From IMG/VR virus record IMGVR_UViG_3300002125_000001: a stretch of 64,000 nt of DNA; one strand, 5' to 3'. Below the pieces are notes generated by a model. It had not been told where the DNA came from and did no database searches. It was given only the letters and a program-made list of their open reading frames with translations. This DNA comes from an uncultured virus (IMG/VR IMGVR_UViG_3300002125_000001) (Duplodnaviria; Heunggongvirae; Uroviricota; Caudoviricetes). This document shows positions 35,701 to 54,101 of the stretch, piece after piece. Numbering within the stretch: position 1 is the stretch's first letter; each line of letters opens with the position of its first letter. The position numbers were made by a program, and so were the translations under genes.

Positions 35701-36017
35701 GCGCCGGTATCCGTCTTGAACTGCATCGAGAGCGCAGGCTGCGATTTGAGTATCTTGTCGAACATGTTCATCGCCTTCGTAGCAAACGCGGCCAGTTCGC
35801 GTTCGTCTACCTTAGAATCCTTCGTGAAAAGCTGCAACGATTCCTTTTCATTAAAGAATTTCTGGACCTGCGCCACTGTCCTTTTCAAGTCTTTATCGTC
35901 CGTAGAGAAACCTACCTTGATATTAGAGGCGGCGGTGGCGAGCGCGTTTGTTAGCTGTTTAACCGCGTCTTGAAAAAGCAACTTAACCTGCACATCTACT
36001 TCGGGCGTCTTTGGCAT
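29766..36017 (-). CDS. tail tape measure protein
   Basis: 2083 aa, Ala/Lys/Glu/Gln-rich and helical, with Gly/Ala hydrophobic stretches; lies after the chaperones and before the tail tip genes. Confidence 0.85.
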   Translation of the reverse strand: MPKTPEVDVQVKLLFQDAVKQLTNALATAASNIKVGFSTDDKDLKRTVAQVQKFFNEKESLQLFTKDSKVDERELAAFATKAMNMFDKILKSQPALSMQFKTDTGAIKGQIEQFMLLMNNGMTEQAGKVAESMTTLVSSLFSRMNTAISSSGLTEKLKEADAEIEKMLSNAKSNLTEFEQKFKTAKDALQGFELDFGDKAEAERLLTILDGAKEKLDQGSISTQTFAKYVETIGGKLEKLELPPQLQQSFKDIQSTGALVSDADIEKVEKYRKKLEELGGMKLPVSEFTQYAAEAGKMDEAIKAIPKSGKQVSTAFQMLNAALADFQNGKAGIDTVNAAMAKFEESANKAGVSVSDIDTAGVYENLKKHIVEVGEESQRVARDIAFDMGDAIATIQAISKSDGAPPTSLLEILDVTRQLGTGAKMTKEQIDALTSGDLRLSLDTDGIQSQLDGVADALGEVDGAIAGIDPSRTLDPATVIAMQEKFVELSSSMDEVREKAKDIGDEIKKMEQKESLGIITPEEVKQFDALIQKQKELGQQAVSIRGDFQKLHTEITKFKSAVGSIERLHGALGKVNQTMRDMRAFGVPIPDGFLKIVDQASAGLMGMKNVMTTMTNAGKSLDTILAFGNAKKGIAGLAGLAKDAGVNMTQFKAASEKAMQSALAQGKKIVAERGGDLTKIVGDLYTKDIKKYTDSVLAQSKAPQAAKDAFQTGAQRVGTQNAANVALAESGGGRFAKIGGSAATTGILVGVGLIAAGIASFWSLWEKRRNEAYKREMLLNKQLSEMRILAVQQESQLRLAAMQAEFNMEKLRARNREKMAADSLTMTAADLAAQRRLLDIDERRKKSQEDAQVKQKGVQQVRERFEKQMEHWKQQQAARREGLHGDSGIMPGAVGIGAGAGIITATATGLTAAVASSAFAAKLGAAVGLSAGPLGAVIGGAIGAVAGGAVGLAVASLKGDLLPKLRSGQGHTYSNEVSASVRSWGHGFLGMPGIDQAKAAKLQSDLENWDNQIAESVKTKFEELFKSYEGALDVILAGDWEIPDSFKERVEQMNERFKNEFDKLANSMDAKLVAVWEGGVEGVKKRAVKQGNKYTYADEKGNVYVETEERIAKRYVEVRAQVEKARENQKKAFDEFDKWKNEEIRMTNELADKEKELQAAKKARIELEINTEKEFRNKLHDLAKQAAASAGDWKDMSGGSQWAGRQKREFVAYEASQMRIAALQGEDAKREMEVRLEAEKSMFEARVEHEAEYQKARFDLEQKIALDLHQKMVDMAVEYNKLRKNNEIRTFETVLANRKRERDLFQRTLDRVLDRQIVTMDTYGKSPFDIQRDLQLIEIAEKFDRIVTKMEERQATLDTAEKNQEDDAAMKEKHALQQQQNEDQAQFEMKMVEMKHQLELQMMAIRFAMQLEYIKKEVEYRKQMEEAQAKAAAALTDPTTWAKPIENMGWEQMKKTLAQSASLGGGRDQAFIASLEQQKKDLMGKGMSEAEAEKKVKAELTDDDKRALAREIMEGFTAGSQKLESSLQAFFQKEGKISEFNDAVRGLTGDKRVEKLRELAAREDVQQWANTPNVPQQPPQQQTQGQQGQQEQTPELTPEQLKNLQELRKLYADSSTVVEANKSNKERSGWNLFAEKDSAASATRELSTGMASYLKTADLSPEERKKVQGMINNALSKDGDEKTAIEIRDYFKEQIEKAKPGEISGTGAVTSGGPPSQTTPGLTDEQVADDKAKEAMKEGLKEANADISDAMKAAAAAGDAQLAQAMQGNNILADILKQLGINNGDQKASLETLAASYKEGTAQLGKLAMDQATKKGQHQMAQDDLDAKQKRQKMEADDRREARNTASKKEQERAQKLEEERVKLDAERRKRADSFQADMIKTRGESQRREGNINTQFAVDMAGAQTGADWMKAIQKRNRELQYERQSRDLTVQEKRETERAKERGVTESEMAQIQEKYANQRAEMDNSKQIAEAISDRMAASGTYRGLISEDVGGKDSMEGTWERIQAAAFGHVTDPAADATITMDRNMQLQHANLMTFLTTSMPQLIQATQQRAMMPQGRNEYVTNNYNRPAGLAGGANRNY

Positions 36018-36253: not shown

Positions 36254-37420
36254 ATGCCCACGCAAAAGAAACAAAAAATGACGCCAGAAAACGATTTCCG
36301 TGAAATACTCCAAGAGACATTCCAAAAAATTGCACACGCGGCCACAGAAAATGAAAAACACTTAAAAAAACAAGAGACCAACAGCAGCATGACCGAGACG
36401 GAAACGATCTCTATACTGATCGAGCCGCTTATTACCATACTGGGGTACGACAAGAACGATCTTCGGGAAATCAGACAAGAATACACAGCAAAAAAGCAAA
36501 CAACAAAAGGGAACAAAAGAGTAGACATTGCGATTCTCCAACGGCAGGATGGGAAAGCAATAATGGTCTGGGAATGCAAGGCAAGAAGAGTGCCGCTCGG
36601 CAACTCAGGGGTTTCGCAGCTTAGGGGATACTTTAAAACTCATAGGGCTGCCATTGGCGTTCTTACAAACGGCATCCACTACCAGTTCTACACAAACATC
36701 GACAACCCCGAAAGTAACGAAATGGACAACGAACCTTTTCTGGAATACAACACAGGCAATAGTCTACCTCCCAATCAACTTGATGTTTTTGAGTACCTTA
36801 GAAAAGACAAGTTTAATCTGAAACAAATACACGAAATAGGAAAAGAACAAAAGGACATCAACAGGATCAAACGGGTACTATACAGCCTTTTTTTGGAAAC
36901 AGGCCCAGACGAATTTTACCAAATAACAGCGGCAATGGCCAAACTCGGGAAAGGACTCGCCGAATCAAAACAGATTATCAAATCCGCCTTCATACGCATG
37001 GTAGAAGACGGCGTAATCCCAGCCGAAAGCACAGGAATTTTATACAAGGAAAAATTCGACGAATGGAAAACCAGTTTGTCAGAAACGACCGTGAAACTTT
37101 TTGAAAAATTAGAAAAGTACGTGTTAAGTCTCGAAAATGTCAAAACAAACCTTTCAAGTGCGTACAAAAGCTACGCGGCCCGCAAACAATTCATGCAAAT
37201 GATGTACTGCGGCGGAAGAAAGAAACTAAGAATTCTACTGCTGGGATTGAACGTAGAAGAAATGGGAAAAGCCAAAAAATCATTGGAAAACACAGAGATA
37301 CAATATCACGGCAAAGAACTTAGACTCTTTATAGAGAACGAGGACAATTTGGAGAGAGCCAAACCGATTATTGAAAGAGCATACGAAAAAGCATACGAAA
37401 AAACGACAAAAAGAAAATAG
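36254..37420 (+). CDS. HsdR_N-like PD-(D/E)XK nuclease with C-terminal DUF5655-like domain (moron, possible defence gene)
   Basis: LIEPLITILGYD..EY...RVDIAI....WECKA...QLRGYF...GVLTNGIHYQFY; opposite strand, A-rich. Confidence 0.75.
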   Translation: MPTQKKQKMTPENDFREILQETFQKIAHAATENEKHLKKQETNSSMTETETISILIEPLITILGYDKNDLREIRQEYTAKKQTTKGNKRVDIAILQRQDGKAIMVWECKARRVPLGNSGVSQLRGYFKTHRAAIGVLTNGIHYQFYTNIDNPESNEMDNEPFLEYNTGNSLPPNQLDVFEYLRKDKFNLKQIHEIGKEQKDINRIKRVLYSLFLETGPDEFYQITAAMAKLGKGLAESKQIIKSAFIRMVEDGVIPAESTGILYKEKFDEWKTSLSETTVKLFEKLEKYVLSLENVKTNLSSAYKSYAARKQFMQMMYCGGRKKLRILLLGLNVEEMGKAKKSLENTEIQYHGKELRLFIENEDNLERAKPIIERAYEKAYEKTTKRK

Positions 37421-38915: not shown

Positions 38916-39281
38916 TTAATCTTTTCCTAAACTGTCATTATCATCCTGGATAATATCGGTTTTAATGTTGTGGATTGCCGTTCTGCCTTCCGGAGCGCAT
39001 CGAGAACTGAACGCCTGTACAATTTCTAAGCGAATGTAGCGGTATGGGCACATCTGTTCCGCTTCAAGTTCCGGCGGCATCAAAACATTTTCAACGTTGA
39101 ATGCGGCTATGCGGTCGTTGTGTTTCACAAAATTGCGTATCGTTACCTGCAATTCGTCGATAACCAATTTGTCGCCCCGGACAAACATTTCAACAAACTC
39201 ATCTATTGACCGGACATCCCAAATCGTACAACCGGGTAGCGTCCAACCTCTGGGCGGCCTTATTGTTATTTTAATTTTCAT
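38916..39281 (-). CDS. partner gene of leader ORF 39278..39697
   Basis: ATGA overlap with the upstream leader ORF. Confidence 0.65.
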   Translation of the reverse strand: MKIKITIRPPRGWTLPGCTIWDVRSIDEFVEMFVRGDKLVIDELQVTIRNFVKHNDRIAAFNVENVLMPPELEAEQMCPYRYIRLEIVQAFSSRCAPEGRTAIHNIKTDIIQDDNDSLGKD

Positions 39282-39697
39282 TGTGATCCGCCATATTTTT
39301 CTTTAAAATAATCATCGTATTGGACAATATCTGATATTGTATAAACGCCCAATTCCATTAGCTCTTTTTTTCTATCTGCGTAATCATCTTTCCGTTTATC
39401 AATCATCGACATCATCGCCTTATTAAGGTGCTGTTGAATTCTATCGCCGTCAGTTGGCATCCTTAAACGCCGCGATTCTTCGATAACTTCCTCTTCTAGC
39501 CCTAGAATAATATCTTTTTGTTTTTCCGCATCCCATTCGTTCCACGGTTGTGGTTTGCCTATAAACTCAGCATTATCAACCGTTGCGCCTTCGGTCGTGT
39601 TTTCCTCTTGAAACGCTGACATATTGCCGCTACCACCGGCTTTGCCCGTTTCAAGCAATTCATTGAAACTACTCGCTACTCTCATTTTATGTTTCAT
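39278..39697 (-). CDS. class B leader + unknown cargo
   Basis: MRVASSFNELLETGKAGGSGNMSAFQ...VDN. Confidence 0.75.
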   Translation of the reverse strand: MKHKMRVASSFNELLETGKAGGSGNMSAFQEENTTEGATVDNAEFIGKPQPWNEWDAEKQKDIILGLEEEVIEESRRLRMPTDGDRIQQHLNKAMMSMIDKRKDDYADRKKELMELGVYTISDIVQYDDYFKEKYGGSQ

Positions 39698-39756
39698 TCA
39701 AAAAAGTAACAAACGCAAACATCCGTAGTATGCCTGTTCCTATTATTTATCTGTTG

Positions 39757-40074
39757 CTAAGGGTTATCGGGGCGACGGTTCCAAATATGGCTCACGTACT
39801 GCAACACGTTTTTAATCGAAACTTCATTATCTGCAGCACAATCGTGGTATGTCCGTAACAAACAAGGAAAACAAGCAACGTGGAAGTAATGGGGGTCTGC
39901 GTTAGACGGCGTATAGCTGTAAACAACATACACATCTGTTTTTCCGCATTTAGGACATGGCAGCAATTCGCTCTCTGTCTGTCGGATTAAACGCTTTAAT
40001 TCATAAGCATCCTCCAAATCGTCCAAAGAGTATCGCAATTTTTCAGGAATATTTTGTTTTATTGTCGTTTTCAT
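39757..40074 (-). CDS. Lar-like (restriction alleviation family) Zn-finger partner protein
   Basis: LLPCPKCG...VACFPC...WNRR. Confidence 0.7.
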   Translation of the reverse strand: MKTTIKQNIPEKLRYSLDDLEDAYELKRLIRQTESELLPCPKCGKTDVYVVYSYTPSNADPHYFHVACFPCLLRTYHDCAADNEVSIKNVLQYVSHIWNRRPDNP

Positions 40075-40092
40075 GTTTTTCTAACAACAGTG

Positions 40093-40422
40093 CTATTCAA
40101 ACCAGCCGTGCCCGTATTTCCATTTGCCAAAACCATGCGTATTCTTAAATTGATCCGCCTGTTCTCTTGTAATTGACCGATAGCCTTCAAGAAAAAACGG
40201 ATTGCCTTCAGAACCCGGTTCTGTTACAACAATGTCATACCCATCTCTATCCTGCGCAATATACAGCGAAATATCATAAAAAGATACGGGAGATAAATCC
40301 TCAACGGGCTTTTCTCCGGTCGGCATATTCTCCACTGAAACAGATTGAAACGCTGACATATTGCAGCTGCCACCGGCATTGCCCGTTTCAAGCAATTCAT
40401 TGAAACTACCCACTACTCGCAT
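40093..40422 (-). CDS. class B leader + cargo X
   Basis: MRVVGSFNELLETGNAGGSCNMSAFQSVSVEN|MP; cargo ends FKNTHGFGKW. Confidence 0.75.
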   Translation of the reverse strand: MRVVGSFNELLETGNAGGSCNMSAFQSVSVENMPTGEKPVEDLSPVSFYDISLYIAQDRDGYDIVVTEPGSEGNPFFLEGYRSITREQADQFKNTHGFGKWKYGHGWFE

Positions 40423-40478
40423 AATATGTCCCTTTCAAAAAGAGTAACAAACGCAAACGTCTACGGTATGCCGGATTT

Positions 40479-41588
40479 TCATTCATTTCCCGCCTTGAAA
40501 TTATACAACGGTTTTATTATTTTGACAACTTCCATCGTATCGCGGCTGTTCTCGATAATCTCGTTCATCGGCTTGTACGCCTGCGGTGCCTCGTCAATAG
40601 TCGCCCGGTTCACGGTGGACGAACAGATTCCTTTCATCGATTTCTCGTATTCGATTAGCGTGATCTTTTCCTTCGCCTCTTTGCGGCTCATTACACGCCC
40701 GGCACCGTGCGGAGCCGAAAAGTTCCAATTGGCGTTCCCCTTCCCTACGCAAAGGAGGCTACCGTCCCGCATATTCATAGGCACCAATATACAGTCGCCG
40801 CTTCGGGCCGATACCGCACCTTTTCGTAAGATCATCGCATCCAAATCAATGTAATTGTGTACGACGGAAAACGTATCGACGATCTTGAACTTCGCCTGTT
40901 TTGATATGTCGCGGGCAATGGCCCGTCGGTTTAAGTCGGCGTATTGTTGGACGATGCCCATATCATGTAAATAATCGGACATCGGGGAGCCTTCCAAGTA
41001 GGCCAGTGCCCTATCGTCGCCTTCCTTTGTCCGACCCAACGTGTCGGCGGCCACGTTCTGATAATAGTCGCAAACCTGTTTGCCCAGATTGCGACTTCCG
41101 GAATGGACAATCAAATAGAGCTGTCCGTCATCGTCTTGCCCCAATTCAATAAAATGGTTCCCTCCGCCGAGCGTGCCCATTGAATGGGACGCACGGTGTA
41201 AATCGACGTGTTTTACGCATTTCAATTCAAATAAATCAATATCCTCGTTGAAATGATGCGGATCGTGTCGGGTGTTAAAACCAGCGGGTATGTTTTTTAT
41301 AATCGCCTTGTCGAGTTGGTTTGGATCGACCCGTTTCTCCTTTATCAACGCGACGAACATCCCGCAACAACCGTCCGTCCCCACTAAATTGGGGACAATC
41401 TTATCCGTAATCGTCATGGTCATTCCGACCGTACCGACCTGCCCGCTGTGGACATCGGGCATTACGCGGATTTGGCTTCCTTCGACAAATGGCTGGTTCA
41501 GGATATGCCGAATCTGCGCAATTGCGCCGGGTTCGGTGGTATCCGTGAATATCTTTGCCGTATTGTATGTTCCTTGTAATTCAATCAT
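40479..41588 (-). CDS. rtcB: RtcB RNA ligase
   Basis: MPDVHSG, VGTDGCCG, GTLGGGNHFIE, VHSGSRNLG, HNYID..ILRKGA, SAPHGAGRVMSR, DEAPQAYK. Confidence 0.95.
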   Translation of the reverse strand: MIELQGTYNTAKIFTDTTEPGAIAQIRHILNQPFVEGSQIRVMPDVHSGQVGTVGMTMTITDKIVPNLVGTDGCCGMFVALIKEKRVDPNQLDKAIIKNIPAGFNTRHDPHHFNEDIDLFELKCVKHVDLHRASHSMGTLGGGNHFIELGQDDDGQLYLIVHSGSRNLGKQVCDYYQNVAADTLGRTKEGDDRALAYLEGSPMSDYLHDMGIVQQYADLNRRAIARDISKQAKFKIVDTFSVVHNYIDLDAMILRKGAVSARSGDCILVPMNMRDGSLLCVGKGNANWNFSAPHGAGRVMSRKEAKEKITLIEYEKSMKGICSSTVNRATIDEAPQAYKPMNEIIENSRDTMEVVKIIKPLYNFKAGNE

Positions 41589-41775
41589 TGTTTTTCATTC
41601 TGTGCTTGTCGCCTTTCGGTTTTGGGACGCTCTTGTTCGGTTCCGTTTTGTTCGTTTATCCTCATGCGTGCCTGCACCGCCACATCGTGGCGAATGTCCG
41701 GTCCGCTTTTTGACCTTTATAATGAGTATGCAAGTTTTCTTCTTCTTCTTTTTCATTTTTATTTTTTTTTCAAAA

Positions 41776-41848
41776 TAGGCGATGCAGGGATCGAACCTGC
41801 GACCTACGGATTATGAGTCCGCAGCTCTAACCGCTGAGCTAATCGCCT
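41776..41848 (-). tRNA. tRNA with CAT anticodon (Ile2-lysidine type or elongator Met); CCA not encoded
   Basis: AGGCGAT/ATCGCCT acceptor stem, TAGCTCAGCGGTTAGAGC D arm, GCGGA-CTCATAA-TCCGT anticodon arm, GCAGGTTCGATCCCTGC T arm. Confidence 0.92.
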
Positions 41849-41971
41849 TTTTCCAGTTGCTTCTTTGCTTGTTGTCGTTCGCGTTTCTTCTGCGGACGGT
41901 AAACAGACTGTCTCGTTTCTTTTGACCAACGCTTTTTCCAGTACGATTTAGTAGCGTCATTTCCGTATGGC

Positions 41972-42397
41972 CTAATTTTTGTTCGTAATCTCATTCTTCG
42001 CTATCTCGAATTTTTTGAAGTCTTGCGCGTCAAACAACAATTCCAAGTCCCACCAATAAAATTCAAAAACATACCCGCATTCAAACCGTGATGTTTGCGC
42101 CTTATAGTATTCCACATTTTGAATGTTTTGTTGATTGGCGTTTTGAAAAAACGGGCAGTAAGAACGCGGTATCCGGTAAGTTGCAAATGATGTACTTATA
42201 ACAAAATCAGTATCCGTTACTGAATGTACTTTTATCAAGGCATTTCGACGGTTGTTTTTCCCTCTGATTTTTTTTCTCGACGGGAAAAGCCTGTCGGGGG
42301 CGTTTTTAATCCGCTTCTTTATGCGCGTTATCTTTCGTCGATTGTTCATTTTTACTAAACTAAAGGAAGGGAATGATCTGGGTTGTTTTCGTTCCAA
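41972..42397 (-). CDS. DUF2442-like antitoxin-type protein
   Basis: YRIPRSYCPFFQNANQQNIQNVE...FYWWDLELLF resembles the DUF2442 pattern P..fP.L..At.....nve....ihWpdLD; true start uncertain. Confidence 0.55.
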   Translation of the reverse strand: MERKQPRSFPSFSLVKMNNRRKITRIKKRIKNAPDRLFPSRKKIRGKNNRRNALIKVHSVTDTDFVISTSFATYRIPRSYCPFFQNANQQNIQNVEYYKAQTSRFECGYVFEFYWWDLELLFDAQDFKKFEIAKNEITNKN

Positions 42398-42486
42398 TTT
42401 TCAATGTATTTATTCGGGTTATTCGCCATGTCCATTTGAACCGCCTTAATGATGTCTTTATCCACTCTTGTGGGTTCCATCAACAT
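42355..42486 (-). pseudogene. short ORF resembling the C-terminal remnant of a DUF4160-like protein
   Basis: MLMEPTRVDKDIIKAVQMDMANNPNKYIENWNEN compared with IVSDIKKHIKKNRNGFVKDWQDE in 46172..46609; lies directly upstream of the DUF2442-like gene. Confidence 0.35.
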
Positions 42487-42647
42487 GCGGCTACTTAAAA
42501 GCAATCGAGTTAATCATCTTTTACGTGCCTGGGATTCGCGGTCCGCCAACGGTCAGCCGCCTTTTCGTACTTTTTAACAAATTTTCGTCAAAACGCAACC
42601 GATCAAAACTGCCCGACGCAACAAAACCCCGCCACGTGGCGGGATCG

Positions 42648-43118
42648 TTACGCCCAATAGGTCAAACTTGTTCCAGGTATCCGTCGCAGGTCCCAATTTT
42701 TCGTCGGCCGATCAAACAAATCTTCGACCTTGTTACATTGCGGGCAGGAATCGTCTTCGCAGGGCCAGCAATGCCCGCAAATCTCACAATGGTTATGCAG
42801 ACATTCCGGGCATGTCAGCCATTCGTCTTCCGGTTCAAAAGCATATCTACAATTTTTGCACATCATTTTAACGTCGATACACTCGGACGTATGCGGCTTT
42901 GGTTTTTCGGCAACTATTACAATCATGTCGATTCTCCTTTTATTATTTTGATTTCTTTTCGTATATTCATTGTTTGAAACAATCGGCACAGAGCAGGTAA
43001 GGGGGTCGGGGCAACTACAAAGACCGGGCAGGGCTTCGCACCAGGCGCACCGGTAAGTATCATCGCATCGAACATATCTAGGCATCTGCGTCTCCTTTCT
43101 GGTTTTGTATTTATGCAA
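42648..43118 (-). CDS. Cys-rich Zn-finger protein
   Basis: Multiple CxxC motifs. Confidence 0.55.
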   Translation of the reverse strand: MHKYKTRKETQMPRYVRCDDTYRCAWCEALPGLCSCPDPLTCSVPIVSNNEYTKRNQNNKRRIDMIVIVAEKPKPHTSECIDVKMMCKNCRYAFEPEDEWLTCPECLHNHCEICGHCWPCEDDSCPQCNKVEDLFDRPTKNWDLRRIPGTSLTYWA

Positions 43119-43366
43119 ACAATTTCACGCGGGGAACGCAAACAACGCGGCCTTCCGGGCCTGGGACGATCCTCAATTTATCCTTCGATACCCACCCAAA
43201 TCCGCGTATGTAAATATGAAGGGTCGTCATATCGTCGATAACGCTAAACGTATCAAACGGTATGTGATTCTTTGTTTTTTCGGTTATGAGTATCTCTTTC
43301 CCGATTTCAAACGTTTCTCTTTTCATTTCTATTTCTCCTATTTGAAAATGTGCGGTGTAACAACGT

Positions 43367-43597
43367 TCAGTTAAAAACAATAACATCCCATTCCGACGTA
43401 TTGTATTTATTGGCCTTCTTTTCAAGCCGGATAACGCCGTCTTCAACAAGTTGCGAAATATGCGTTTTGAACTGGCGCCGCGTCCAACCGAAGTAAGCCA
43501 TACCCAAGAGGTAAACGTCGTATTCAAACAGGGCGAATCCGCCGTTTGAAAGATGTTCGCAAGCCTTTACGAACTGCGTCAAAAGTGTGTTTTGCAT
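43367..43597 (-). CDS. small hypothetical protein, possibly winged helix
   Basis: AGGAG RBS; ISQLVEDGVIRL. Confidence 0.5.
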   Translation of the reverse strand: MQNTLLTQFVKACEHLSNGGFALFEYDVYLLGMAYFGWTRRQFKTHISQLVEDGVIRLEKKANKYNTSEWDVIVFN

Positions 43598-43717
43598 CGT
43601 CCCGATCTCCTATTGAAAAAGGTCTTGAACTTGCGGGGATCGTTCCCCGCACCTGTTTTTCAATAGATTCGTAGAGCAAGTTTTCAGGCAACTATGCAAA
43701 ACATTACAAAGAAGTTT

Positions 43718-43957
43718 TTAATCAATAAGCAACTTTATCTTATCAGCAACTTCCTTTCCGTAATGTTCGGCCAACAGCGAATACATTGAATGCCCGGCTT
43801 CCTCATAGTTACCGTGTTGTTCATGTAGCCATTTATCGAACTTGTACGGGTCTAAAAACGGTCTGCCCGTCAGCCACGAGAGCATACCGTCAAGGAAATT
43901 GCATATTTGCATATCGAACGTATCCCTAAAAAATTTGATCGCTTCCTGGTGAGACAT
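43718..43957 (-). CDS. hypothetical phage protein
   Basis: 79-aa ORF downstream of a promoter-like motif. Confidence 0.55.
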   Translation of the reverse strand: MSHQEAIKFFRDTFDMQICNFLDGMLSWLTGRPFLDPYKFDKWLHEQHGNYEEAGHSMYSLLAEHYGKEVADKIKLLID

Positions 43958-44037
43958 ACGCCAATTCCCGTTCTAAAAAAAATACAAGTTAAATCAAAAA
44001 AAAACTTCCAACTAAGTATGCCGGATTATAACGCGAA

Positions 44038-44799
44038 TCAATTTGTTTTTTCTTTTTCGGCGTTCTTTTCGGCAAGCCACGCGAAGTATTCATCGGGGCT
44101 ACTGAACTGTATTTGGCCTGCCTTCGGGGTGGGGAGCGGGGCCGAGTTTGCGTCTTTCCTGGTCTTGTTCGCCAGCTTATTCAATTCTTCAAGATGCGCT
44201 ATTTCTTCGGGCAACAAGCGTAGCATCCAATGTATTTGATAACTCGTCAAATCAAGAATTTGGTCAACCGTCCAACCGTACTTTTCGGCCAACCCTTTGA
44301 AGATACGGGCCACGTTTTCGTCAGGAGTCGATTCGACACGCGGACTATCACTCTCAGGCTGCGGCGGATCGGGCGGGAGCGGGCAAAAAGTAGCTTGTTG
44401 CATCTCCGCGAGGAGCAACCGCGAGGTTTCGGAGATGCCGTTCGGAAAAAACAGCTTTTTTAGCTTTGCATCGGCCCACGCTGGTGCGTCGCGGATAAGC
44501 AACTTAATAAAACGAACCAAATAATCAATATGAGAATATAAAAACTCATGGCCGATACCTACTTGGAAATCAAAGTCTTCGATTTTATTCAACGCAAGAT
44601 CAACAAACTCGGCACGTTCGCTTTCGGGCACCAACTTAATCTGATCGTCAAACTGTTTGGCATACTTGTATTTAAGCCACGTATTGAAATCAATAAGATC
44701 GCGTTGTCGCAAAGGGTATACCCATAGCGTATGCCGGTCCAATTCGTAGGGGACCGGCGATTGCGACATAGCCGATTTGTGCGTGTACGGTAAGATCAT
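44038..44799 (-). CDS. putative tail assembly chaperone with gpT-like C-terminal motif
   Basis: C-terminal LAEKYGWTVDQILDLTSYQI resembles gpT/GT chaperone tails; paralog of 38206..38856. Confidence 0.55.
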   Translation of the reverse strand: MILPYTHKSAMSQSPVPYELDRHTLWVYPLRQRDLIDFNTWLKYKYAKQFDDQIKLVPESERAEFVDLALNKIEDFDFQVGIGHEFLYSHIDYLVRFIKLLIRDAPAWADAKLKKLFFPNGISETSRLLLAEMQQATFCPLPPDPPQPESDSPRVESTPDENVARIFKGLAEKYGWTVDQILDLTSYQIHWMLRLLPEEIAHLEELNKLANKTRKDANSAPLPTPKAGQIQFSSPDEYFAWLAEKNAEKEKTN

Positions 44800-44862
44800 G
44801 TGAATTGAAAACGATTCATTTACCGTATGTATGCCAGAACGCGCCAGAAATTCAAGAACAAA

Positions 44863-45312
44863 TTAGCATCTTCGCCGGGGGAAACGCGCCGGGACCGCCT
44901 GCAGGGTAGGGACAAACGATTGTCGGCCCTGCAATGCCAATTCCGTATCCGCCATGCGCTGGGCAAGGCAGTTATTCGGATCGAGCAGCATCGCCTGCTG
45001 CCCGTGCAAAGAACCTCGAAGGAACGCATCGGTAGTCATAGCATACGCCTCGCTGGCCGCGCCGACCGATTTTGAGGTAACAACGCCGGTAGATACCTGG
45101 AACTGGTGCGCCGCTAGATAAAGCGTAATCGCCTCGATCTGCTCAGGCGTATAATTTGCCATACACCCGTTCAAAATACTTGTCTGGACCATAAGCGACG
45201 CGGTTTTGATAGCCATATCCAACGTCGCGTCGGCGGTCGGCGGTATGTTCGGGTACACCTCCCGTACTTTTCCGTGCGTTGTGTAGGGCGGGGTCATGTC
45301 TTTCGGTGCCAT
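44863..45312 (-). CDS. head-tail adaptor (DUF4054-like)
   Basis: YLAAHQF...VTSKSVGAASEAY...LRGSLHGQQAMLLD. Confidence 0.8.
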   Translation of the reverse strand: MAPKDMTPPYTTHGKVREVYPNIPPTADATLDMAIKTASLMVQTSILNGCMANYTPEQIEAITLYLAAHQFQVSTGVVTSKSVGAASEAYAMTTDAFLRGSLHGQQAMLLDPNNCLAQRMADTELALQGRQSFVPTLQAVPARFPRRRC

Positions 45313-45342
45313 TGCTGCTATATTGTATGATTGGTTATTGTC

Positions 45343-45705
45343 CTATTTTTTCCGTTTCAATGCCTCGCGCACTTGGCTATCCTGTTCGTCGGCGATTTCG
45401 TAGGCAACGGTATCGTTCGCGTTGTGCGCATCCCGCAGCTGAATCCTAAAAAAATTGACGAGTTTATTCAAATCATCAACGCTATAGGCGGCGTACTCTT
45501 TGATGTTTTGTTCTCTTTCGCTTACCAATTTCTTCAGGTCCTCGGAACCGACGGCACCCTGAAAACTAAGCGTCCAGTCCAATTTTCCTTTTGGTTCCCG
45601 CATCGAGGGTAGCGGACCAACCGGGACGGGCATCGCCGCGTTAAATGAGGCATTAGCGCATTGTTGCAAATGCTCAAACTGTGATATGTCTGCCAATTTT
45701 TTCAT
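45343..45705 (-). CDS. class A leader + unknown cargo
   Basis: MKKLADISQFEHLQQCANASFN. Confidence 0.75.
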   Translation of the reverse strand: MKKLADISQFEHLQQCANASFNAAMPVPVGPLPSMREPKGKLDWTLSFQGAVGSEDLKKLVSEREQNIKEYAAYSVDDLNKLVNFFRIQLRDAHNANDTVAYEIADEQDSQVREALKRKK

Positions 45706-45735
45706 TGTGATTCCACTAAAAATTACGCACGTCCG

Positions 45736-46209
45736 TCATATAACAAATGAATCTTGGCTGTCGTTCCAATGCCGCCTATCAATATAATTTACGGATAATT
45801 CCAAACCTGCGATAGTACAAACAAAGTGGTGTCCGCAATGATCCGTATGCGTATCCCAATGATAACCAAGCGATATTAAATCATCAACCAGGGCCATTTC
45901 AAATTCCAACAATTTGTGTTTTGGTCGTCGCCATAGTTTAGAAAGTAGCACAAAACCTGGATTTCCACGTCGTCCCAACGCGGCATAGTATAGCCCTTTA
46001 GTTAGCCAACATATAGGATTTAATTTGTTCAAAACATACGGCAATTTGAAATTGAATTCTAAACCGTAGTCTAAAACCACAAATCGAAAAAACAAACCTA
46101 AAAACGCCAACTTAATTGCGACGTTAATCACGCTATGCCTACTGTACCACCATTCTTTTAAACTGTCCATTCTAATCCTCTCGTAACAGCTGTTGCCTTG
46201 CCTGCTCAT
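45736..46209 (-). CDS. partner of the DUF4160-cargo ORF, with a hydrophobic segment
   Basis: Overlaps the 3' end of 46172..46609. Confidence 0.5.
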   Translation of the reverse strand: MSRQGNSCYERIRMDSLKEWWYSRHSVINVAIKLAFLGLFFRFVVLDYGLEFNFKLPYVLNKLNPICWLTKGLYYAALGRRGNPGFVLLSKLWRRPKHKLLEFEMALVDDLISLGYHWDTHTDHCGHHFVCTIAGLELSVNYIDRRHWNDSQDSFVI

Positions 46210-46609
46210 CTTGCCAATCTTTTACAAAACCATTTCTGTTCTTTTTAATGTGTTTTTTGATGTCGCTTACAATAGGGGCAGGTATGCCATTATTTTCGGC
46301 CAACTCGACAACGGCCTGACCATTGTATTCAAGCCAAAATTTTGCTTTTCCTTCCGGCGTATAGACGTGAACGTGCATAGGTTCTGTTCTGCCGCCATGC
46401 TGTTCTTCGTCAACGTAAACAGAAAATGAAAAACCACGAAATGGCGGCGTATTCTTTGATTTGGGCGACATATTGCCGACAACGGCACTTTGAAATGCAC
46501 CTGACAACTTGGAAACTGCCGCACCATCATTAAACATGGACATTTCGCTTCGAGGCATATCCCAGTTCCCCAACGATTCAAACATTGATATATCAGCCAA
46601 CCTTTCCAT
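46172..46609 (-). CDS. class A leader fused to a DUF4160-like domain
   Basis: MERLADISMFESL...MSMFN...AFQ..VGN|MSP; cargo GFSFSVY..E.H...EPMHVHV....GKAKFWL...VELAENNG...W. Confidence 0.8.
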   Translation of the reverse strand: MERLADISMFESLGNWDMPRSEMSMFNDGAAVSKLSGAFQSAVVGNMSPKSKNTPPFRGFSFSVYVDEEQHGGRTEPMHVHVYTPEGKAKFWLEYNGQAVVELAENNGIPAPIVSDIKKHIKKNRNGFVKDWQDEQARQQLLRED

Positions 46610-46641
46610 TATTCTATCTTTCTTCGTGATTCGGCGAGTTG

Positions 46642-47025
46642 TTACTCTTGGAGATACCTACGATTCCATGATTCGCATATACGTCTTAGAGATTCTTTGA
46701 AATCTTCTTCATCGTCTTCCGCATACCATGTTACTGTTTGCATACCGCATTCTGGATTGCTGCAACTAGCGTATAATCCATGAGGATTTATTGTAAATTC
46801 CACGCCGTAAGTGCCATCTTCTTTTTTCACGCTTCGTCCACCATTTTTTCCGGGATAAAAGGCGTATTCAATACGAGGCTTTTCCTGCCCACAATTTGCG
46901 CACGGTAACAATGAAACCTCAAACGGTTCTATTAACGCTAGAATTTCGGCTTCATTTTCCAACATGCAGGCATAAAAACAAGCGGCAGAACCGGGCTTGA
47001 ATTCTGGGGTCAATTTACTATTCAC
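46642..47025 (-). CDS. Lar-like Zn-finger partner protein
   Basis: LLPCANCG...CSNPECGMQT...WNRR. Confidence 0.7.
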   Translation of the reverse strand: MNSKLTPEFKPGSAACFYACMLENEAEILALIEPFEVSLLPCANCGQEKPRIEYAFYPGKNGGRSVKKEDGTYGVEFTINPHGLYASCSNPECGMQTVTWYAEDDEEDFKESLRRICESWNRRYLQE

Positions 47026-47422
47026 AGCTCACCTCTTCATTTTCAAATTTTACCAAACCTTCTATACTGTCGCCCCAAGTAGAACCGGAACGAACGCGGT
47101 TTATGTATTGTAACGCCTCTGCCCGGTCCGTAAAAGGCGATCCTTGTACAACAAATGAATCTTCCATCGGGTTATCTGGGTTTGTCGCAATTATATCCAA
47201 ACCTTTGCCTTCCGGATTTTTTCGTAACGAAAATTTATACTGTTTTCCGGTCATCTTGCTTTTAGGCTTACTAAAATTTGGCGACATACTATCTACGATG
47301 GCATCTTGAAAAATCTCCGACAGGCGAGCAACCGCACCACTATTAAACATGGACATTTCGCTTCGAGGCATATCCTCGCTCCCCAACGATTCAAACATTG
47401 ATATATCTGCCAACTTTTCCAT
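47018..47422 (-). CDS. class A leader + cargo X homolog
   Basis: MEKLADISMFESLGSEDMPRSEMSMFN; leader DNA near-identical to 46521..46609. Confidence 0.75.
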   Translation of the reverse strand: MEKLADISMFESLGSEDMPRSEMSMFNSGAVARLSEIFQDAIVDSMSPNFSKPKSKMTGKQYKFSLRKNPEGKGLDIIATNPDNPMEDSFVVQGSPFTDRAEALQYINRVRSGSTWGDSIEGLVKFENEEVSCE

Positions 47423-47460
47423 AGCAGTATGCAAAAAAAGAAAAAATACTGATCAAAATT

Positions 47461-47991
47461 TTATTTCAATCCGGCCCGCACATTGTTGTCCATATCTTCA
47501 ATATCGTTTTTGAATGTTTCGTATGCCGCATCGAGGTCTTTGTCGCCGTTCTGCAATTGATCGAAAATTCTGTATTGTTTATCCGCCTCTTGCGACAACT
47601 TGGTATGCGAGTGCAAAAACGTACCCAACGAATCCAACATCCCCTGCTCGCCCTGGGCTACTTTTGCCAGTGTCTGTATCTCTTTTTTCGGTATACTGGG
47701 AAACTGTTTGACGACTGATTTAAGCGTCCGTTTACCCCCGTTCAATTCACGCAGGGCCGAATAGACCTTTTTGAATTCGGGTCCCGTCACGCCCCGGCTC
47801 TCAAACTGTCCCATAAACGCCTCTTTTTGCGCCCGGAAATCATCGCCCGCCTGTGCCGCCTCGTAATGGAACGGCTTTACTTTTTCAACGAACCCGTCCG
47901 ATAATTGCGAGTTGAAACACGACATGGGCGACATCATGCGTTGATTCGCGTGTGCCTGCAACGATTCAAATTGTGAAATATCTGCCTGCAT
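47461..47991 (-). CDS. class A leader + helical cargo
   Basis: MQADISQFESLQAHANQRMMSPMSCFN. Confidence 0.75.
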   Translation of the reverse strand: MQADISQFESLQAHANQRMMSPMSCFNSQLSDGFVEKVKPFHYEAAQAGDDFRAQKEAFMGQFESRGVTGPEFKKVYSALRELNGGKRTLKSVVKQFPSIPKKEIQTLAKVAQGEQGMLDSLGTFLHSHTKLSQEADKQYRIFDQLQNGDKDLDAAYETFKNDIEDMDNNVRAGLK

Positions 47992-47995
47992 TGTC

Positions 47996-48514
47996 TTACT
48001 TTTGTTGTGCGTAGTATTGCATCGCTTCCTCTTTGGTAGCGAATTTTGGCATTTCTTTTTTCGGTTGCGCCGTCCCGCCGGGCAATTCTACGGGTTTGAA
48101 AGCGTCGCCGCCCAACAGGTACGTATTGCCCAAAAACGACTTGGCTATCGCCGCCTGTTTTTTCATCAAGCGGTCATGCGCTTTCGGATCGTCTTTAACC
48201 TGTTCGCCTTCCTGTCGTATCTCGCGGCTAACTTCGCCGACCCCGGCTTTCATAGTATCGACCGCGTTATCGATTTCCGGGCGGATCGATTTGTATGTTT
48301 GCTGCGCCTGCCGCACTTCCTGCTCGTTTCGGGAATGCCAAATATCCTGCTGCGTTTCGTAGACTCCGCGCAAACCGCCTTTCAATATCTCATAGGCGCG
48401 GTCCATCGATTGGAGCGTCTGGTCCAATTCGGGCGAATTGAAGCATGACATAGCAGATACCCCGCCACGTGGCGGGGTATCCAATAATTCGTTAAATGAA
48501 TTTACAACTCGCAT
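47996..48514 (-). CDS. class B leader + helical cargo
   Basis: ATG at 48514: MRVVNSFNELLDTPPRGGVSAMSCFN; the palindrome lies inside the leader codons. Confidence 0.75.
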   Translation of the reverse strand: MRVVNSFNELLDTPPRGGVSAMSCFNSPELDQTLQSMDRAYEILKGGLRGVYETQQDIWHSRNEQEVRQAQQTYKSIRPEIDNAVDTMKAGVGEVSREIRQEGEQVKDDPKAHDRLMKKQAAIAKSFLGNTYLLGGDAFKPVELPGGTAQPKKEMPKFATKEEAMQYYAQQK

Positions 48515-48516
48515 GG

Positions 48517-48864
48517 TTATCTTTGGGCTATTGCCTGTTCTATCCGATCCAAACGAGTATTTGTATCGCTTTGCAACCGGAGTAGTTTTGCATCTACGTT
48601 TGCAAAACCGTTCTTTGTGGTGATTTCCAAATTGTCCATTCGGCTTTCTAATTTTCCAAACCGTTCGTCTATTTTTCCAAATCGCTCGTCCACCTGCTTC
48701 CTCCACTCAACCAATGGAAGATTACTCTGTATAGGCGTAGCTGAACTTATGGGACTTATGCCACTCGGCGCATTTTGCACAGGATTAAACGCCCCCAAAC
48801 CGGAAACAGGGGCACCCACGGCTCCCAACGATTCAAACATACCAATATCAGCGAGCTTTTCCAT
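48517..48864 (-). CDS. class A leader + coiled-coil cargo Y
   Basis: MEKLADIGMFESL...GAFNPVQN; cargo RMDNLEITTKNGFANVDAK. Confidence 0.75.
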   Translation of the reverse strand: MEKLADIGMFESLGAVGAPVSGLGAFNPVQNAPSGISPISSATPIQSNLPLVEWRKQVDERFGKIDERFGKLESRMDNLEITTKNGFANVDAKLLRLQSDTNTRLDRIEQAIAQR

Positions 48865-48869
48865 GTTTA

Positions 48870-49292
48870 TCACTTTCGTAAAAGTTGTTCCCGGTACGCT
48901 TGGTAGCTTTCGGGCGTTAGGTTCAGGTAACGGAGCATTTCCTGCGAAGGCGTCTCCGTTTTTCTAATCGCATCCTGTACTTGCAACATCCCCTTTTCGC
49001 GTGAGGCTCGTTCGGCGCCCCAATCGTCATACGGATCATCCTGCCGGTCCCCGGCGGCGTCGCCCGTAGCGAAATCGGGGTAGACCCGCTTGATCGTTTT
49101 GGCTACATCGCGTGGGTGCATCCGACCCCCGTCGTCCAAATAAGAGAGCATATCGGGCAGGGTAGTGCCCTGGAACGCGGCGTTTACGCTCACGGCGCGC
49201 AGGCTACGGTCATCAAACGTAAACATAGCGGGTATGCCAAATGCCGCGTTCTGTTGCGTCTGTAGCTGCGAAAATAGTGGGATACTGTCCAT
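48870..49292 (-). CDS. class C leader + unknown cargo
   Basis: 41-aa leader identical to that of 49748..50110. Confidence 0.75.
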   Translation of the reverse strand: MDSIPLFSQLQTQQNAAFGIPAMFTFDDRSLRAVSVNAAFQGTTLPDMLSYLDDGGRMHPRDVAKTIKRVYPDFATGDAAGDRQDDPYDDWGAERASREKGMLQVQDAIRKTETPSQEMLRYLNLTPESYQAYREQLLRK

Positions 49293-49330
49293 TTCAATTT
49301 ATAGGCGTTGACGTTACTACAACAGTATGA

Positions 49331-49729
49331 CTACTTACCTGTCCTTTTATTCCATGCGCTGCAGACGCGCCTTAACGCTTCTACAAAATCGTCTTCGGTA
49401 TCTTCGGCATTCCACACTCTTGTTTGGATTCGGCAATCTTCAATATCTGAGGGCGGATCAGTAGCAGCATTTCGGCAACACACAACATACAACTCATGCG
49501 GGCATTCCTTCATGGGGATTTCGCCGTTTGGTTGCAGCTGAGTTGGGAACATATTACCGGGGCGGTACATGTAATGTACATGCGGACGATCATTTCCGCA
49601 ATGCGCACAGGGCAGCAAGGTGGCATCAGCCTCGTTAATGAGGGTAGCTATTTCGGACTCGTTTTCAAGCTCGTACAAAAAACAACGAGTACGGCCATCA
49701 CAATTGCCTGTTTTTAGTTTTGTATTCAT
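49331..49729 (-). CDS. Lar-like Zn-finger partner protein
   Basis: LLPCAHCG...WNKR; N-terminus similar to 46642..47025; GAGG RBS. Confidence 0.7.
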   Translation of the reverse strand: MNTKLKTGNCDGRTRCFLYELENESEIATLINEADATLLPCAHCGNDRPHVHYMYRPGNMFPTQLQPNGEIPMKECPHELYVVCCRNAATDPPSDIEDCRIQTRVWNAEDTEDDFVEALRRVCSAWNKRTGK

Positions 49730-49747
49730 TATTGCACCTCATAAAAG

Positions 49748-50110
49748 CTAAAATAAGTACCCCCACTTATCAAACTTATGCGTATTTTTGAACGCGATTG
49801 CTTCTTGAGCCGTTATATTATCCATATCTTCGATATACGCTGTTTGTTTGCCGCCATCGGGGTCTGAAACGGCAATCCCACACCTGTCCGTTCCTTGAAC
49901 AGGGTGTAGCGAAAAAACGTAATGTCTGTCTGGACGCAATTCTGATAAAGAGATTAAGCCGCTCGGAAAGTTTTCTACGGAAACGTCTTGGAACGCGGCG
50001 TTTACGCTCACGGCGCGCAGGCTACGGTCATCAAACGTAAACATAGCGGGTATGCCAAATGCCGCGTTCTGCTGCGTCTGCAACTGCGAAAAAAGAGGGA
50101 TAGAATCCAT
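49748..50110 (-). CDS. class C leader + cargo X
   Basis: MDSIPLFSQLQ...AAFQDVSVEN|FP; cargo ends FKNTHKFDKW. Confidence 0.75.
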   Translation of the reverse strand: MDSIPLFSQLQTQQNAAFGIPAMFTFDDRSLRAVSVNAAFQDVSVENFPSGLISLSELRPDRHYVFSLHPVQGTDRCGIAVSDPDGGKQTAYIEDMDNITAQEAIAFKNTHKFDKWGYLF

Positions 50111-50483: not shown

Positions 50484-50828
50484 CTATCTTTGCATAAGAG
50501 CTTGTTTGATACTTGCCACATCCTGCTCCAAACGATCAAATCGCGTATTTGTGTCGTTATGCAACCGTTCTATTTTTGCGTCTACGTTTGCGAAACCGTT
50601 CTTTGTAGCAATTTCCAAATTATCAATTCGGGCTTCAAGGCCATCGACCCGCTTGCTCAAATTCTGGCCCCATTGTGGCATAGGAAGGTTACCCTGGACG
50701 GACGCGGGGGAACCGACGGGGTTCACGCCCGGCGCGTTCTCAATCGTATTGAACGCGCCCAAATTCGACAATCCGACGTTTCCGGTTCCAAGCGATTCAA
50801 ACATCCCAATATCTGCGAGTTTTTCCAT
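50484..50828 (-). CDS. class A leader + coiled-coil cargo Y (paralog of 48517..48864)
   Basis: MEKLADIGMFESL...GAFNTIEN; RIDNLEIATKNGFANVDAK. Confidence 0.75.
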   Translation of the reverse strand: MEKLADIGMFESLGTGNVGLSNLGAFNTIENAPGVNPVGSPASVQGNLPMPQWGQNLSKRVDGLEARIDNLEIATKNGFANVDAKIERLHNDTNTRFDRLEQDVASIKQALMQR

Positions 50829-50857
50829 AATTATCACTTCCGTAAAAGTTGTATTTG

Positions 50858-52406: not shown

Positions 52407-54101
52407 TTAAGCCGCCATTTTGAATTCATCGCCATCTTCTTCCAAACGCGACGCTTCGTCGGCGACGATAAGTTTCTTCAATTCCGGCGACATGTCCAAC
52501 AAAAACGGGTACCGGGACGCCAGCGAATGGAGCTGCGCAAGGTAGACACGTTTCATATCGTCCGACGATTCGCCCAGGTACATCGCCATAGCGTTCCGCG
52601 TCTCGGCGAATACCTCGTTCATCGCCTTCGTAAACGCGGTATCTACGCTTTTTCCGCTTATCGCGTCCGCCCCGTCATCGGTAGTTGACTGGGCGATCCG
52701 CGTAGCATCGGGCAACGAATCGGCTTTGGAATCCCCGTACTTTTTAATATGGGACAACACGGCGGCCTGCGCCGCCTTCAATTCCACGTCAAGGTTTTCC
52801 AACTCACGCAAGTCGGCGGGATCGAGCGGTTTCTTAGCCTTGAGCAATTTTGCGTTCTTTTCCTCCAACTCCGCGATCCGTGTCCGAATGTCTACTGCAA
52901 TAGCACGCAACCGCTTGCGCTCCGCATTCTTTTTTTCAACCTCTTCACTATCGAACGAACCCTTCGGTCGCCCGGTCGAGGCCGACTCCCACAACCCGTC
53001 CTCAGTCTGCCGGAACTTAAACCCGCCACGCGCGTCGTTCAGAAGGTTCAGAATCAACGCCTCATTGAATGAGGTAACGAGTACCTGTGCCGCGTTTCTT
53101 AATTTCTTAACCGTACTTACGAACAGGTCTTCACCCTCTTCCAAATCGTCGGAGGCCACGATTTCGGGGTTATCCTGCATCTCCTCACGAGCGGGCACCT
53201 CCTCAAGAACAATTTCGGGCGTGTCCGGCATAGCTTCGGACAAACTTGCCACTTTCGCGGGACCTGTCGGCGGCTCAATTGTGATTTTGTAACCCTCGGC
53301 TGTTGTAAACGATTGCACGCCGGGCATGACCGGGCCCGCGCCCATTGATTCCAAAGGCGGCGCGACGGCTACTTTTATTTCTGTATGCGCCGTGCCGTGC
53401 GCATTCGCGTTTTTCGCATCGGTGTGTCCCTGTTCTTCTCTAAAAAGTCGTGTAGATTCCATAACCGGCGACCCCGCAAGATAATCATTGTTGATGTACG
53501 TAGTAATGATATTCAACGTTTCTCCCGCTTTCATTTCTTTTCGTTCGTTAATGAGCAACCCGGCCCCATCCGATAGGCTACAAGCGCCCTGTTTACGGGG
53601 CAGGATAGCGAGATGGTCGGCCCGGATGTTGATGATACGCCCGATATACGGTTCGCTATTCCATACGCCCTCATCCATGATGAGTTCGGAGAACAGACCG
53701 GTCGATATTTCCATCGGGAGCCGGTGTTTGATATGCTCAAGCAGGGTAGGGCACTTCTCCTCGGCCTTGCGTCTATCGATCCACGCTTCGGCCTTGAGCT
53801 TACCGTCCACAAAATGCGTATTCATAATCATCCCGACCGCCTGCCGCTTGTAGACTTCGAGATCGGTCGCCGTATCGCCCCGGAACGGATGTTCGATTAC
53901 GACGGGCTTGAAATTCCACATTTTGGGCGTTTTTGCCAACTCTTCGGTATCGTAATAAACGGGCCCCTGCGAGCCGGTATGGACCCCTTCGAGGATCATC
54001 GTCATCGGGGCGACGACGTATTCACGGTCGTCAAGCGTTTCGTACCGAACCGTCGGGTCGATAGTTACGTTCCAAATGGTTTCTATTTTGTTGCGTGGCA
54101 T
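52407..54101 (-). CDS. prohead protease/scaffold (DUF2213-like)
   Basis: PMTMILEGVH..YYDTEEL...WNFKPVVIEHP...EISTG...DHLAILP...GACSLSDGAGLLIN, followed by a long acidic coiled tail. Confidence 0.85.
   Translation of the reverse strand: MPRNKIETIWNVTIDPTVRYETLDDREYVVAPMTMILEGVHTGSQGPVYYDTEELAKTPKMWNFKPVVIEHPFRGDTATDLEVYKRQAVGMIMNTHFVDGKLKAEAWIDRRKAEEKCPTLLEHIKHRLPMEISTGLFSELIMDEGVWNSEPYIGRIINIRADHLAILPRKQGACSLSDGAGLLINERKEMKAGETLNIITTYINNDYLAGSPVMESTRLFREEQGHTDAKNANAHGTAHTEIKVAVAPPLESMGAGPVMPGVQSFTTAEGYKITIEPPTGPAKVASLSEAMPDTPEIVLEEVPAREEMQDNPEIVASDDLEEGEDLFVSTVKKLRNAAQVLVTSFNEALILNLLNDARGGFKFRQTEDGLWESASTGRPKGSFDSEEVEKKNAERKRLRAIAVDIRTRIAELEEKNAKLLKAKKPLDPADLRELENLDVELKAAQAAVLSHIKKYGDSKADSLPDATRIAQSTTDDGADAISGKSVDTAFTKAMNEVFAETRNAMAMYLGESSDDMKRVYLAQLHSLASRYPFLLDMSPELKKLIVADEASRLEEDGDEFKMAA

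Follow-up and report, generated by a model that had tools for sequence, protein, structure and literature searches.

Phage proteins that share their N-terminal part and differ in what follows it are known from two systems. Among MuF toxins, a small putative immunity open reading frame (ORF) lies directly downstream in 89.4% of 191 muf toxin genes (Jamet et al. 2017, PMC5576092). The T4 internal proteins are presented as anti-restriction proteins for which encapsidation and proteolytic trimming are proposed, with no downstream partner genes described (PMC3012670). Two further descriptions concern the kinds of gene involved: DUF4160/DUF2442 form dhiTA, a toxin-first type II toxin-antitoxin (TA) pair that works in vivo (PMC8198452; further covered in PMC12065111), and RalR, a Lar-type protein, has been reported as a DNase toxin with an RNA antitoxin (PMC4041452). 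Here we studied a 64,000-nt stretch of an uncultured Caudoviricetes virus (the window; positions 32778-96777 of one 167,820-bp virus record, estimated completeness 94%), in which a family of small cargo proteins, hereafter X, is carried on three different N-terminal leaders and each time followed by a Lar-like Zn-finger gene. We are highly confident that X and the Lar-like gene are functionally coupled; they are probably a new toxin-antidote pair. By analogy with the systems above, and at a little short of an even chance, we read X as a leader-tagged, probably head-packaged effector, the Lar-like protein as its neutralising partner, and their arrangement as the outcome of shuffling by recombination at leader ends. 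The six ORFs, all on the minus strand, are the following (window coordinates, unless the whole record or another contig or locus is named).

40093..40422, minus strand: cargo X-B, 109 aa, class B leader ending in SAFQ
39757..40074, minus strand: partner L-B, 105 aa, without the inserted hairpin of the other two partners; phrog_599; PF14354 (E 1.8e-5) and TIGR03655 (E 5.8e-6), both below cut-off
47018..47422, minus strand: cargo X-A, 134 aa, class A' leader starting at ATG (the ORF tool starts at TTG 47434)
46642..47025, minus strand: partner L-A, 127 aa, its start overlapping the X-A stop by 8 nt
49748..50110, minus strand: cargo X-C, 120 aa, class C leader ending in AAFQ
49331..49729, minus strand: partner L-C, 132 aa, no Pfam match by itself

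As the sequence-only reading had stated, a Lar-like CxxC gene comes directly after each cargo (at 39757, 46642 and 49331), with an 18-nt gap in pairs B and C and an 8-nt overlap in pair A. A Lar-subfamily gene follows X in 4/4 X neighbourhoods seen, one of which lies in an unrelated phage contig of 11 kb (L081), so that the gene-neighbourhood check proposed at the time found an outside homolog linked to a Lar-like gene as well. In L081, the X homolog P0015 (4996..5364) bears a B-like leader (MQVFNNFNEVV), has a promoter-like TTGACT-16-TATAAT upstream and no flanking leader repeats, and is followed by an orthologous Lar-like gene, the two overlapping by 8 nt just as X-A and L-A do; two ordinary Lar genes of this contig have no preceding X. 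A second outside pair is probable on circumstantial grounds, since P0016 (an X protein) and P0030 (a Lar-subfamily protein) both trace to a single 41,198-bp ENA contig apiece, probably the same one. No lone X or lone subfamily Lar gene was found in the phage genome with our own profiles, and neighbourhoods were viewed for 2/29 outside Lar-subfamily proteins. The pair thus has one feature of type II TA systems, small neighbouring or overlapping genes that stay linked from genome to genome (gaps of 18, -8 and 18 nt, and -8 in L081).

The cargos at 40093, 47018 and 49748 had been taken as homologous, and this was borne out at the profile level. Without their leaders, X-B and X-C gave a Smith-Waterman score of 136 (0/5000 shuffles), X-B and X-A 46 (8/5000), and X-C and X-A 34 (152/5000), X-A thus being weak in pairwise comparison; a profile of X-B and X-C placed X-A third among 1362 genome ORFs (E 0.017). 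X-A is 46% identical to P0015, and a profile of these two matched that of X-B, X-C and P0016 at 88% (E 3.1e-6, 73 columns), which are the two groups into which the X proteins fall (16-49% identity between copies). The motif FKNTH.F.KW indeed ends both X-B and X-C. A profile search of 1.84 billion representatives returned 16 matches, namely the three proteins of this genome, the two outside homologs P0015 and P0016, and 11 long multi-repeat proteins dropped as artefacts (4/11 inspected), whose repeats we take to resemble fibronectin-III. None of the five X proteins (100-134 aa) has a Pfam or PHROG match; a word-based search recovered X itself only (3 matches among 24 candidates), and the ESM Atlas queried with X-B gave nothing at 0.9 or above.

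Searches of other collections were negative. Viral-contig scans for X or Lar found no relative, a viral scan with a looser pattern gave 30 loci that failed to convince with either profile (best E 0.006 for Lar and 2.2 for X), and genome-collection scans found nothing. In the DNA fetched for 80 viral loci with related capsid proteins (35-47%) there was no X, subfamily Lar or above-inclusion class A leader, one locus (L005) giving a weak Lar-type match (E 0.009). Annotated phages gave no match below E 0.6, a PDB sequence search nothing credible, and Foldseek with the X and partner models nothing at E <= 0.001, with no HicA, HicB or DUF4160 structure among the matches listed. Members of the family are scarce in these databases, and its reach is limited accordingly.

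Genome-wide, 28 leader ORFs in five classes were retained out of 31 regular-expression candidates, after removal of a tail gene, a chance match and a 14-codon remnant. The leaders are 25-45 residues long and head small genes; the class A profile scores 20/1362 ORFs above inclusion. Every X+Lar unit is bracketed by its own leader in two near-identical copies with a spacing of 737-818 nt; the features concerned are these.

40345..40441, minus strand: upstream copy of the leader B repeat; spacing of 737 to the copy at 39608-39704, which it matches at 89% across 97 nt
39608..39704, minus strand: leader B repeat, downstream copy, on an unrelated cargo (39278..39697)
47332..47422, minus strand: upstream copy of the leader A' repeat; spacing of 813 to the copy at 46519-46609, which it matches at 92% across 91 nt
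46172..46609, minus strand: leader A' with DUF4160 (DhiT-family toxin) cargo; its A' repeat (46519-46609) is the downstream copy; above the PF13711 cut-off, at E 1.5e-10
49989..50110, minus strand: upstream copy of the leader C repeat; spacing of 818 to the copy at 49171-49292, which it matches at 93% across 122 nt
48870..49292, minus strand: leader C with unrelated cargo, bearing the downstream C repeat (49171-49292)
40500..40528, minus strand: sigma70-like promoter match, 11/12, about 80 nt before X-B, by consensus match only

Among the 31 leader candidates, only four pairs within 1 kb exceeded a DNA-alignment score of 100: those around the three X+Lar units and one around a DUF4160+DUF2442-like unit (class D, positions 5933-7356 of the whole record, 839 apart). 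In classes B and C the similarity of the leader copies stops immediately behind AFQ, the point from which X-B and X-C resemble each other (SVSVEN/DVSVEN); the swap point accordingly lies where the leader ends. With this sharp boundary, the linkage in all four neighbourhoods and the occurrence of one pair on another leader in L081, the proposal that cargo and Lar-like gene travel as a unit on interchangeable leaders was upheld. Between the two class C leader copies, the 41 codons show 7 synonymous changes and no replacement, and class C is the only one for which selection on the leader is clear. One sequencing run, labelled termite gut metagenome, contains 99% of the words and may be the source; no RNA run is listed as containing them. 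The Logan contigs of this run break at the leader repeats, leaving the three units as pieces of 766, 839 and 795 nt with depths of 41.5, 49.4 and 44.2, vs 38-42 on the flanks. They contain no joint skipping a unit and no sign of excision, in an assembly that drops rare variants and has no piece spanning the repeats.

Other features were observed around the leaders. Sigma70-like sites number 31, vs 21.4 +/- 3.9 in shuffles. The palindrome core CGCCACGTGGCG has 18 sites in the phage record vs 0.007 expected, five of them in the window (4634, 29742, 42630, 48463 and 55654); 7/18 lie at -80..400 nt of a leader start vs 1.4 at random (P 0.0005), one is inside a B leader, and L081 has none. It is possibly a regulator site or a REP-like (repetitive extragenic palindromic) element. 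Three paralogous class A cargos have coiled-coil C-termini (48517..48873 and 50484..50837, both minus strand, and 114185..114526 of the whole record), and three further paralogs stand far apart, at 25900, 98203 and 126904 of the record.

Known toxin families are carried on the same leaders, which, together with the leader copies flanking the X+Lar units, is new in this analysis. The genome has four leader-DUF4160 genes (Pfam E 1.5e-10, 5.6e-9, 1e-5 and 0.022), three of which are followed by a leaderless DUF2442-like gene (Pfam E 1.6e-4 and 0.064, and E 7e-5 with a local profile for the third); these three cassettes lie beyond the window, in L083 (5538-7356) and L084 (5728-6856), on leaders of classes D and E. 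Within the window, a further leader heads another TA-type cargo.

29161..29673, minus strand: class E leader with TA-toxin-like cargo; phrog_3066 'toxin of TA system', E 1.2e-4

Our main argument is that, because known toxins sit on leaders, the leader-borne gene of the X+Lar pair should be the toxin. X and the DUF4160 cargos also have an N-M-[SP]-P type start in common, and X might possibly derive from a degenerate DhiT; the comparison gave hhalign E 0.04-0.06 at about 1%, and X has no HxH motif or His pair. Several genes near these cassettes are less readily classified. The gene after the A'-DUF4160 toxin (45736..46161, minus strand) is not DUF2442-like, has a hydrophobic N-terminus and no family match, and is possibly an alternative antitoxin. 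The gene behind the class E cargo (28633..29154, minus strand) has weak DpnD/PcfM and DUF4288 matches and no recognisable antitoxin character. An orphan DUF2442-like gene (41972..42397, minus strand; local profile E 3e-6, no Pfam match) has an apparent broken DUF4160 remnant upstream (about 42358-42513, minus strand; profile E 0.58), and together they probably represent a fifth dhiTA cassette in decay.

All three Lar-like proteins are homologous to one another (0/5000 shuffles for each pair) and are the sole three in the genome by their own profile. Their PF14354 scores (25.3 bits, 18.1 bits and no match, for a curated cut-off of 28.6) and TIGR03655 score (26.5 bits vs 39.6) fall below the cut-offs, which makes them a divergent subfamily of Lar/RalR. 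This subfamily comprises 32 proteins (among 1291 candidates; 105-163 aa), of which 11 match PF14354 at E <= 0.01, and the copies are 27-47% identical. Its hallmarks are an added N-terminal helix (LENEAEI), an invariant His, an acidic AEDDE motif and a hairpin insert; C42, C45, C88, C93, W120 and N121 are invariant across 31 aligned rows. A BFVD structure search with the partner model put Lar-annotated viral proteins on top. Two members, P0024 and P0045, have the same longest contig (4935 bp, JGI), which suggests multi-copy arrays in other phages.

How such a cassette might work is best outlined from the neighbouring head genes, beside which the leader genes cluster, a position that helps the analogy of the leader with a capsid-targeting peptide of T4 internal proteins.

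52407..54101, minus strand: DUF2213 head maturation protease; PF09979 E 1.3e-7, phrog_530
59096..60247, minus strand: probable major capsid protein; phrog_771 'virion structural protein', E 2.4e-25
29766..36017: tape-measure-like ORF, 2083 aa, labelled by length and position, without family match

Most likely, the leader would act like the T4 capsid-targeting sequence and bring its cargo into the prohead, where the DUF2213 protease, the candidate leader-cleaving enzyme, could trim it. TA toxins among the cargos would each have a leaderless antitoxin behind them, protecting the producing cell. X would, by analogy, be delivered at infection as a leader-tagged effector, and the Lar-like protein may bind and neutralise (or chaperone) it while virions form. 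Recombination at the leader end would then move cassettes between leaders and leave units between two leader copies. For encapsidation and cleavage of the leader we have hints at the motif level only. The protease has an internal LVTSFNE at residue ~344 that resembles the core of B and D leaders, and TTNA at ~70 of the capsid protein is a candidate cleavage site. The broader formulation, in which short swappable capsid-targeting leaders load both TA toxins (DhiT, phrog_3066) and a non-enzymatic effector X into the head, with a Lar Zn finger recruited as the immunity protein of X, is tentative and to our mind rather doubtful.

Several observations weigh against X as the toxic, neutralised partner or against parts of this scheme. 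X-B and X-C are the closest cargos (136), yet L-B and L-C score 109 vs 221 for L-C and L-A; the L-C, L-A, L081 and P0030 partners score 214-280 mutually and L-B 100-119 with all. Partner similarity not tracking X similarity, there is no sign of cognate co-divergence. The five invariant columns of X are all structural (P, Y, S, A, W) and include no catalytic-type residue, so that X looks like a binder and not an enzyme; it is also not basic (net charges -6, -1, -3) and offers no charge complement to its partner. The partner, for its part, carries two invariant residues besides those that bind Zn, a His and an Asp; it is better conserved than X and found more often (32 proteins vs 5 X), and three of the six RalR positions at which changes lowered toxicity (T37, N51, K52; PMC4041452) have partner counterparts by reading of the alignment. 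Moreover, no DUF2442 follows the fourth leader-DUF4160 gene (46172), the B, A' and D leader pairs show 4, 3 and 3 replacements vs 2, 1 and 3 synonymous changes (26-27 codons), and 3/4 linked pairs belong to one genome. Complex prediction of L-A (31-row alignment) with X-A (5 rows) scored 0.00, with controls unfolded and an uncertain partner fold, a value that speaks neither for nor against the pairing. The earlier suggestion that Lar proteins act as cognate immunity proteins or cofactors accordingly survives in part. The analogy with toxins on the same leaders, followed by leaderless antitoxin-like genes, keeps an immunity role plausible; the qualifier 'cognate' finds no backing in the partner scores, and the residues of X and the DNase toxin RalR also speak against the proposal.

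Given the homology between the partner and RalR, a reported DNase toxin, the roles may be swapped: the Lar-like protein would be the toxin (a RalR-like nuclease, or a HicA-like RNase with Zn inserts) and X a protein antitoxin placed first in the operon, like the antitoxin of small hicBA modules, with a leader that either pre-loads this antitoxin into virions or just becomes attached to the first gene, whatever it is. E. coli RalR itself scores 53.5 bits to PF14354 and is homologous to the subfamily (hhalign 88%, E 3.1e-6; toxicity as given in PMC4041452). In the L-A model (predicted local distance difference test, pLDDT, 95), the core is alpha-beta-beta-beta-alpha, an arrangement like that of double-stranded RNA-binding domains (dsRBDs) as in HicA (PMC10865869), and the invariant His82 opens the second core strand; the X model (pLDDT 57 overall, ~70 in its beta-beta-beta-alpha core) best matches, weakly, the YegP-like HVO_2922 (Z 4.7, root-mean-square deviation (rmsd) 2.8, 54 aligned) and also TTHA1013 (Z 3.1, rmsd 5.3, 55 aligned), and X lacks catalytic-type conservation. 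All these folds, however, are matched at Z < 8 (HPF 5.8, rmsd 3.6, 87 aligned, and dsRBDs ~4.3 for the partner) and indicate a common arrangement only; 7-HicB and 6-HicA profiles gave hhalign E 0.12-0.87, with X and Lar among noise in 1393 targets, in a comparison of low power. The partners are acidic (net charges -1, -8, -6), unlike what we would expect of a DNase, 3/6 RalR toxicity positions are not kept, and the leader is on the toxin in every known-family pair of this genome. We consider reversed polarity unlikely.

A non-toxic role in counter-defence strikes us as rather improbable too. X would then be injected as an inhibitor in the manner of T4 IPI*, and the Lar-like protein would alleviate restriction, the two being co-selected because they hit the same host defence or because Lar folds or loads X. 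T4 internal proteins are indeed diverse anti-defence proteins sharing only a capsid-targeting sequence (PMC3012670), X resembles a small binding domain, and a single, rather well conserved partner for divergent X copies would suit a cofactor or chaperone. Lar is also named for restriction alleviation in Pfam and TIGR. A 1995 paper by King and Murray reportedly bears, by its title, on Lar restriction alleviation. The X+Lar layout nevertheless mirrors the DUF4160/DUF2442 cassettes of the same genome, the ordinary Lar genes of L081 stand without X, and no defence-family match was found beyond a CxxC-level one to Cas12f. Finally, mere linkage by descent, that is, one chance X-Lar neighbourhood copied by leader-mediated recombination without any functional tie, would fit three of the four pairs seen being paralogs in one genome, the direct repeats that would copy both genes together and the 27/29 outside Lar-subfamily neighbourhoods unseen, but is very unlikely given that the two reading frames have remained whole and side by side with identities as low as 16-49% for X and 27-47% for Lar, that L081 keeps the pair and its overlap without flanking repeats, and that the genome has no lone X or subfamily Lar.

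Two other genes of the window stand near those discussed. An RtcB RNA ligase gene (40479..41588, minus strand; E 5e-66) lies directly upstream of X-B, which puts RNA repair beside RNase-type toxin cassettes; a gene at 136363..137766 of the whole record, after a dhiTA cassette, is presumably a second ligase-like gene, judged by its motifs. A gene with an HSDR_N domain (type I restriction R N-terminal; 36254..37420, plus strand) is found on the opposite strand between tail genes.

X and the 32-member Lar subfamily form an unannotated, directly testable gene pair, and the very common and poorly understood Lar family thereby gains a concrete partner. Both polarities would be novel for the Lar family, whether its members serve as immunity proteins or as toxins that a protein antitoxin keeps in check; searches of the open-access literature brought up no Lar-family immunity protein and no such leader system, and the supplements of the polymorphic-toxin and polyvalent-protein surveys (PMC3482391, PMC5512222) could bear on this. 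The wider system suggests that phages can turn ordinary TA modules into virion-delivered cargo by means of a short leader, and leader-borne TA cargo would join two known themes, the T4 internal proteins and the MuF toxins.

Compared with known systems, the cassettes described here resemble the MuF polymorphic toxins of temperate phages in their constant N-terminal part, variable C-terminal cargo, head-region location, downstream small ORF and model of a phage-delivered toxin, but the constant part is a 25-45-aa peptide in five classes without a MuF domain, the cargos include type II TA toxins, and the partner of X is Lar-like. As with the T4 internal proteins (IPI*), many unrelated small proteins have only a short N-terminal sequence in common; here, however, the leaders are longer, DNA-level repeats flank the cassettes, a DUF2213 protease is present, and packaging is putative. 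The toxin-first order and touching genes are those of dhiTA, itself found three times on leaders here and once leader-flanked, whereas X is not a DUF4160 protein (no HxH) and the second gene is Lar-like instead of DUF2442. The partner has the CxxC...C..C Zn ribbon and terminal WN[RK]R helix of Lar/RalR but differs from RalR in length (105-163 aa vs 64), in its strict position behind X and in that RalR has an RNA antitoxin and no such protein partner. Class 2 hicBA likewise consists of two small touching genes, and X followed by its partner shows a succession of secondary-structure elements like that of HicB followed by HicA (PMC10865869); no sequence similarity was detected, and HicA has no Zn ribbon. 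The X+Lar cassette would work like MuF cassettes and T4 internal proteins and, by the features tested, is a member of neither.

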